A DNA stretch of 64,000 bases, taken from NCBI RefSeq assembly GCF_030384885.1, contig NZ_CP128613.1, one strand, 5' to 3'. The translations under genes and the position numbers were made by a program. This document shows, one piece after another, positions 23,653 to 25,209 of the stretch (the first letter of the stretch is position 1; each line of letters begins with the position of its first letter). The stretch comes from Escherichia coli. GTDB lineage: Bacteria; Pseudomonadota; Gammaproteobacteria; Enterobacterales; Enterobacteriaceae. Under the pieces are notes generated by a model. The model worked only from the letters and a program-made list of their open reading frames with translations. It was not told where the DNA came from and did no database searches.

Positions 23653-25209
23653 TTGATCCCGGACGTATCACAGGCGCTGGCCTGGCTGGAAAAACATCCT
23701 CAGGCGTTAAAGGGGATACAGCGTGGGCTTGAGCGCGAAACTTTGCGTGTTAATGCTGATGGCACACTGGCAACAACAGGTCATCCTGAAGCATTAGGTT
23801 CCGCACTGACGCATAAATGGATTACTACCGATTTTGCGGAAGCATTGCTGGAATTCATTACACCAGTGGATGGTGATATTGAACATATGCTGACCTTTAT
23901 GCGCGATCTGCATCGCTATACGGCGCGCAATATGGGCGATGAGCGGATGTGGCCGTTAAGTATGCCATGCTATATCGCAGAAGGTCAGGACATCGAACTG
24001 GCACAGTACGGCACTTCTAACACCGGACGCTTTAAAACGCTGTACCGTGAAGGGCTGAAAAATCGCTACGGCGCGCTGATGCAAACCATTTCCGGCGTGC
24101 ACTACAATTTCTCTTTGCCCATGGCATTCTGGCAAGCGAAGTGCGGCGATATCTCGGGCGCTGATGCCAAAGAGAAAATTTCTGCGGGCTATTTCCGCGT
24201 TATTCGCAATTACTATCGTTTCGGTTGGGTCATTCCTTATCTGTTTGGCGCGTCTCCGGCGATTTGTTCTTCTTTCTTGCAAGGAAAACCAACGTCGCTG
24301 CCGTTTGAGAAAACTGAGTGCGGTATGTATTACCTGCCGTATGCGACCTCTCTTCGTTTGAGCGATCTTGGCTATACCAACAAATCGCAAAGCAATCTTG
24401 GTATCACCTTTAACGATCTCTACGAGTACGTAGCGGGCCTTAAACAGGCAATCAAAACGCCATCGGAAGAGTACGCAAAGATTGGTATTGAGAAAGACGG
24501 TAAGCGGTTGCAAATCAACAGCAATGTGCTGCAGATTGAAAACGAACTGTACGCGCCGATTCGTCCAAAACGCGTTACCCGCAGCGGCGAGTCGCCTTCT
24601 GATGCACTGTTACGTGGCGGCATTGAATATATTGAAGTGCGTTCGCTGGACATCAACCCGTTCTCGCCGATTGGTGTAGATGAACAACAGGTGCGATTCC
24701 TCGACCTGTTTATGGTCTGGTGTGCGCTGGCTGATGCACCGGAAATGAGCAGTAGCGAACTTGCCTGTACACGCGTTAACTGGAACCGGGTGATCCTCGA
24801 AGGTCGCAAACCGGGCCTGACGCTGGGTATCGGCTGCGAAACCGCGCAGTTCCCGTTGCCGCAGGTGGGGAAAGATTTGTTCCGCGATCTGAAACGCGTG
24901 GCGCAAACGCTGGATAGCATTAACGGCGGCGAAGCGTACCAGAAAGTGTGTGATGAACTGGTCGCCTGCTTCGATAATCCCGATCTGACTTTCTCTGCCC
25001 GTATCTTAAGGTCTATGATTGATACTGGTATTGGCGGAACAGGTAAAGCGTTTGCTGAAGCGTACCGTAATCTGCTGCGTGAAGAGCCGCTGGAAATTCT
25101 GCGTGAAGAGGATTTTGTAGCCGAGCGCGAGGCGTCTGTACGCCGTCAGCAGGAAATGGAAGCCGCTGATACCGAACCGTTTGCGGTGTGGCTGGAAAAA
25201 CACGCCTGA
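23653..25209 (+). CDS. gshA: Glutamate--cysteine ligase
   Basis: Track ORF 518 aa beginning at TTG (23653); [33 protein letters not shown]. Confidence 0.9.

Follow-up and report, generated by a model that had tools for sequence, protein, structure and literature searches.

UUG initiation of gshA translation in Escherichia coli and its conservation among relatives

Translation of gshA in the Escherichia coli DNA studied here starts at a TTG codon (UUG in the transcript) at positions 23653–23655 of the plus strand, numbered within the 64,000-nucleotide stretch that we call the window. Taking together the sequence, the RefSeq start, the literature and the conservation of the codon, we put the probability at roughly 0.96 that this TTG is the true start and that a strong Shine–Dalgarno (SD) sequence, combined with an inefficient UUG, gives an output that is limited and condition dependent. 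The start is already known and published, and our confirmation of it is correct but ordinary. The comparison with relatives adds that TTG is deeply conserved across distant gshA genes, which is perhaps new in a small way; open-access searches on gshA with TTG or UUG brought up no paper apparently making this comparative point.

The plus strand around the start reads GACAGGCGGGAGGTCAAT TTG ATC CCG GAC GTA TCA. The SD sequence GGGAGGT occupies 23642–23648, 4 nt before the TTG; within it, GGGAGG covers 23642–23647, GGAGG covers 23643–23647 and stands 5 nt before the start, and the core GGAGGT covers 23643–23648. GGAGGT is the full complement of the 16S rRNA 3′ end. The SD sequence named in the preliminary description, GGAGG at a suitable distance, is thus part of a strong GGAGGT with a 4-nt spacer. 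Upstream, the gshA frame (TAA AAC GAT TTT GAC AGG CGG GAG GTC AAT TTG) is closed by a TAA 10 codons before the start (23623–23625, plus strand), and the nine codons from this stop to the TTG include no ATG, GTG or TTG and none of the near-cognates ATT, ATC, ATA and CTG. The earlier statement that the frame has no ATG upstream therefore holds, and extends to every canonical start codon. Later in-frame candidates lie deep within the protein, a TTG at codon 31, a GTG at codon 72 and an ATG at codon 79. From the upstream stop to where the conserved GshA protein begins, no canonical start other than the TTG at 23653 is available.

By eye, a putative –10 region of a gshA promoter (TACAGT/TTATGCT) can be placed at 23608–23619 on the plus strand, which would give a leader of about 30 nt. 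A scan for consensus promoters and terminators called no gshA promoter, the candidate –10 falling under the 9-of-12 threshold; nearly every Enterobacteriaceae locus has the –10-like box ATTATGCT at a constant distance from gshA. Loci of the Buttiauxella and Cedecea type (L031–L047) have an in-frame ATG 13 codons before the start, but it sits within the ATTATGCT box and has no SD, and we rejected it as a start.

The reading frame opened by the TTG (23653–25209, plus strand) encodes a glutamate–cysteine ligase (PF04262) of 518 aa, in agreement with the open reading frame (ORF) list, RefSeq and structural data. With phmmer, its residues 1–518 aligned to residues 1–518 of the E. coli enzyme in PDB 1v4g (1,174 bits), bearing out the claim that the GshA N terminus fits only a start at 23653. 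Few residues differ from the PDB chain; four are engineered Cys-to-Ser positions and one is a V/E difference near residue 496. PF04262 is on record for a protein cluster (P0001) 100% identical to GshA. The RefSeq annotation of gshA in strain 2013C-4282, with the gene order alaS-csrA-tRNAs-yqaB-yqaA-gshA-luxS, begins at exactly the TTG codon of the window, and a 601-bp query around the start matched that strain at 100% identity and most other E. coli at 95–99%, with matches in 5,424 of 5,426 complete E. coli genomes. The K-12 gene (b2688) has the same TTG, SD, upstream stop and length of 518 aa and is identical to the window from –55 to +67, the difference between the two being strain-level SNPs elsewhere only.

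The E. coli context yqaB-yqaA-gshA-micA-luxS is present in the window on the evidence of ORFs and annotation. The small RNA MicA (Rfam RF00078, 83.9 bits) lies at 25219–25290 on the minus strand, 10 nt past the gshA stop and convergent with it, as in K-12. The yqaA gene starts with GTG, which overlaps the yqaB stop in the plus-strand tetranucleotide GTGA (23152–23155), an arrangement consistent with translational coupling; this GTG is retained in 36 of 36 alignable related loci. Past luxS, a 370-aa ORF on the minus strand (25919–27031) carries a C-terminal AAA_33 kinase-like domain (Pfam E = 3.6e-32) and is named "ATP-binding protein" by RefSeq; the luxS neighbor in K-12 is emrB, so this strain has extra or different DNA here. 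A tRNA cluster at 21311–22308, with one Ser(gct) and four Arg(acg), corresponds to serV-argVYZQ, and ARAGORN called two further, minus-strand Arg(tcg) genes that each overlap one of the Arg genes on the plus strand and are probably mirror-image artifacts.

The start codon is fixed within E. coli. We searched the 5,426 complete genomes by megablast with a 45-mer, TTTTGACAGGCGGGAGGTCAAT-TTG-ATCCCGGACGTATCACAGGC; a 45-mer with a central mismatch has no 28-nt seed, so a genome with an altered start codon would yield no match. The TTG version was found in 5,420 genomes (5,413 at ≥99% identity), and the ATG and GTG versions each gave zero matches among the 5,426. The TTG is neither a strain oddity nor a sequencing error.

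The effect of this codon on translation has been measured in K-12. Sakamoto et al. 2015 (PMC4405209) described initiation of gshA at an inefficient UUG and placed the gene in the "polyamine modulon." Working with lacZ fusions on plasmids in a K-12 polyamine auxotroph, another strain than ours, they found that a UUG-to-AUG change raised basal synthesis of the GshA–β-galactosidase fusion (GshA-LacZ) 3.0-fold and reduced its stimulation by polyamines from 2.4-fold to 1.1-fold. For this gene, these data establish the view of the preliminary description that initiation is less efficient at a non-ATG start, which may serve as a control point. The original gene sequence is that of Watanabe et al. 1986 (NAR 14:4393; ref. 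20 of PMC4405209). Because the gshA initiation region in the window is identical to that of K-12, the stimulation by polyamines would be expected to carry over to our strain. The first description of the gene in 1986 is said to have reported the unusual TTG start already, and reportedly also included a comparison with the N terminus of the purified enzyme, as sequenced from the protein.

The mechanism that we propose begins with recruitment of the 30S subunit, which the strong and well-spaced SD (GGAGGT with its 4-nt spacer) would favor. The TTG at 23653–23655 would be read as fMet by initiator tRNA, and the near-cognate UUG would make recognition of the start codon inefficient. Output of GshA would be held about three-fold below the level of an AUG start, going by the K-12 literature, and would depend on conditions favorable to initiation at codons other than AUG, of which polyamines are the published case. 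A sensitivity of gshA to the balance of initiation factors is plausible from general knowledge; IF3 discriminates against near-cognate starts.

The nucleotides around the start are conserved well beyond the codon itself. We computed column entropies from 49 Enterobacteriaceae sequences (the window and 48 species loci) and found a near-invariant translation-initiation block of about 57 nt, from –18 to +39 (23635–23691, plus strand), that includes the third positions of codons 2–13. Third-position entropy was 0.16 bit over codons 2–12 of gshA vs. 1.13–1.15 bit over codons 13–150, the mean over positions –20 to –1 was also 0.16 bit, and the columns of the SD ranged from 0 to 0.14 bit. The neighboring genes in the same loci gave higher values throughout, for codons 2–12 and positions –20 to –1, respectively: 0.77 and 1.03 bit in luxS, 1.21 and 0.56 bit in yqaA, and 0.98 and 1.27 bit in yqaB. 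None of these three genes, the only controls used, had a comparable frozen block. The consensus CGGGAGGT-N4-[T/G]TG-ATCCCGGAYGTATC is still present in mid-range Enterobacterales, and GGAGGT stands at 4-nt spacing in 21 of 21 such loci (3 nt in L068); the SD was conserved in every Enterobacterales locus covered. The extra nucleotide constraint around the gshA start is real, and candidates for its cause are a site bound by a regulator, a local structure that responds to polyamines and a site acting at the DNA level beyond the promoter, on its downstream side.

One way to account for the block is a second layer of control, in which the stretch from –18 to +39 would be bound by a trans-acting regulator (a small RNA, or an RNA-binding protein such as CsrA) or would form a hairpin occluding the SD and start codon. 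The case for CsrA rests on a pair of GGA motifs with a spacing of about 17 nt in the block, and that for a hairpin on pairing of CGGGA (–12 to –8) with UCCCG (+4 to +8). The low synonymous entropy relative to the rest of gshA and to its neighbors speaks for such a layer, as does the persistence of the consensus in mid-range Enterobacterales. Three candidate stems, CGGGA/UCCCG (HP0, which would mask the SD in part), GGUCA/UGAUC (HP1, which would hold the start codon) and CAGGC/GCCUG (HP2, +18 to +31), pair in 86–96% of cells vs. 2–59% when slid by 1–3 columns, a control biased by the derivation of the stems from these same sequences. Against this, the minimum free energy of the initiation region did not differ significantly from that of shuffled sequences (z = –0.70), and Rfam at a permissive E-value gave no match there, only the downstream MicA. 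The stems are almost invariant and offered no usable covariation in HP0, HP1 or HP2: the few changes mostly break pairs, HP2 having one apparent G–C to A–U double change (L049, 3 distinct sequences) vs. five A–C mismatches, and HP0 and HP1 are mutually exclusive. Among the titles and abstracts returned by open literature searches, none linked a small RNA, Hfq or CsrA to the gshA 5′ end, and the nucleotide sequence of the block is not preserved in Wigglesworthia or in distant lineages with TTG, where all that is shared is an SD of the AGGA type and a spacer rich in A/U. We regard a second layer of this kind, by regulator or by hairpin, as tentative and somewhat unlikely on this balance. As specific partners, GcvB and MicA were discarded after their complementarity to the gshA 5′ end appeared weak by eye.

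The reading of TTG as the true start of gshA is supported by the start codons of relatives. A genome scan returned 53 gshA loci from distinct species, and in 51 of them the codon corresponding to residue 1 could be used. The homologous codon was TTG in 49 of the 51, among them Escherichia, Citrobacter, Enterobacter, Kluyvera, Lelliottia, Kosakonia, Buttiauxella, Cedecea, Siccibacter and Superficieibacter; the two most distant loci, an Enterobacteriaceae bacterium (72% identity) and Tatumella (64%), had GTG, and ATG was found in 0 of 51. Salmonella has TTG too, with matching flanks, and a stop stands at –10 codons from the start in most Enterobacteriaceae loci. Database entries for enteric GshA include proteins with an extended N terminus (P0003, 542 aa; P0004, 562 aa), which look like over-annotation from a preference for ATG.

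The homologous proteins listed were all at least 82% identical to GshA, and we therefore took distant starts from representatives of clusters at 50% identity and from metagenomic loci. The called start among ten such representatives was TTG in five (Rheinheimera pacifica, Shewanella surugensis, Candidatus Symbiodolus, Wigglesworthia and one more), GTG in two, and ATG in three (Aeromonas, a Rhodoferax-like betaproteobacterium and one more). A metagenome scan added 80 gshA loci; it was seeded on two conserved internal peptides and hence blind to the start codon. For the 125 loci with a strict match to the core motif G-x-E-[RK]-E-x-L-R (residue 25 onward in E. coli), we enumerated all in-frame ATG, GTG and TTG codons from the motif back to the upstream stop. 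No in-frame ATG preceded the conserved core in 92 of the 125, and TTG was the only canonical candidate in 82. Choosing the candidate with the best SD 19–36 codons upstream of the core gave 109 TTG, 10 GTG and 6 ATG, with metagenomic starts assigned by the layout of the ORF and its SD, candidates of differing kinds in 11 of the 125 loci, and a misassignment in Aeromonas (L060), where the gene caller had ATG. A conservative rule accepting ATG whenever one was present in that interval still gave 102 TTG, 13 ATG and 10 GTG. In 79 loci the start stood 24 codons ahead of the core, and in 25 it stood 26 codons ahead; of the 109 TTG loci, 92 had an SD that matched over 4 nt or more. Many distant marine loci (L094–L132) have a recurring AGGAATTATT before the TTG; it gives an A/U-rich spacer, and its last three bases place a near-cognate ATT in frame directly before the start.

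To count lineages, we clustered the loci on 300 aa of the core. Single linkage at 80% identity gave 38 clusters (28 with TTG, five with GTG, four with ATG and one mixed), and at 70% identity there were 26, of which 19 had only TTG and three to four contained ATG. UUG accounts for 3% of E. coli start codons, next to 83% AUG and 14% GUG (Hecht et al., bioRxiv 10.1101/063800). Set against a background of 3–5%, TTG is far more frequent among gshA lineages than chance would allow. With p = 0.05, the binomial tail for 19 of 26 is about 1e-19, a figure that is indicative only since the lineages are partly dependent.

A single T-to-A or T-to-G change would give a stronger start, and synonymous sites among these lineages are saturated; purifying selection is therefore the simplest reading, and TTG would have been retained across Gammaproteobacteria because a start that is weak, or that can be tuned, was selected for. 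A broader version of this reading holds that the UUG is ancient and has been under selection across Gammaproteobacteria, in Enterobacterales including the AT-rich endosymbiont Wigglesworthia, in Shewanella, in Rheinheimera and in many marine lineages, and that it implies, along with the frozen block of about 57 nt, an RNA-level control of glutathione synthesis on top of that by polyamines. We offer it as a possibility to which we give less than even odds; the control might take the form of a regulator-binding site or of a structure occluding the SD and start codon.

Retention of TTG could also be neutral, a historical accident at a real start. A strong SD may make the identity of the start codon matter little, and reporters with GUG or UUG reach 10–100% of the output of AUG (Hecht et al., bioRxiv 10.1101/063800). 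Yet 19 of 26 lineages have kept TTG, despite core identities of <70% between lineages and saturation of their synonymous sites, when one base change would yield a working and stronger start, and the three-fold gain in protein with AUG means that such a change is not phenotypically silent. We consider neutrality improbable, and selection on the weak start remains our preferred explanation for the retention of the codon.

That translation instead begins downstream, at the TTG of codon 31, the GTG of codon 72 or the ATG of codon 79, with the TTG at 23653 in an untranslated leader, is a reading for which we found nothing specific beyond the tendency of gene callers to over-extend ORFs and the differing N termini of the 542- and 562-aa database entries, and it is highly improbable given that no SD-like sequence was noted ahead of these codons, that the first 24 residues are conserved despite divergence of the DNA (Wigglesworthia, MIPKVSKIIPWIK; Tatumella, VIPDVSDALSWLEKH), that TTG keeps a fixed distance from the core and is mostly preceded by an SD match, that the UUG-to-AUG change shifts output three-fold (PMC4405209), and that the PDB chain begins at the residue encoded by the TTG. 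Residues 2–6 (IPxVS) are kept in Wigglesworthia while its synonymous sites have diverged, which argues that the stretch is translated, in accordance with initiation at TTG 23653.

The start of gshA can be set beside other weak starts. The gene infC is autoregulated through discrimination by IF3 against non-canonical starts, and it resembles gshA in that the identity of the start codon is itself a regulatory element. It differs in using AUU, whereas the gshA start is a canonical weak UUG; we know of no autoregulatory loop, established or suggested, for GshA. Both infC and pcnB are cited as having AUU starts (Hecht et al., bioRxiv 10.1101/063800). The genes with UUG or GUG starts discussed in the Introduction of PMC4405209 share with gshA an inefficient near-cognate start at which polyamines enhance the binding of fMet-tRNA; they are other genes, acting in other pathways.

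As it stands, the TTG start of gshA confirms an annotation of textbook level and calls for no re-annotation, and its deep conservation is a by-product of modest value. In practical terms, a TTG-to-ATG change is a simple engineering lever for overproducing glutathione, one already in use (PMC4405209), and gshA is a clean natural example for studies of selection on start codons. GshA carries out the first committed step of glutathione synthesis. The frozen initiation region of the enteric gene provides a concrete target in the search for a post-transcriptional regulator of this pathway, and the retention, in most gammaproteobacterial lineages sampled, of a weak start that a one-base change would turn into one of three-fold output suggests that limiting or tuning the translation of GshA matters for fitness.
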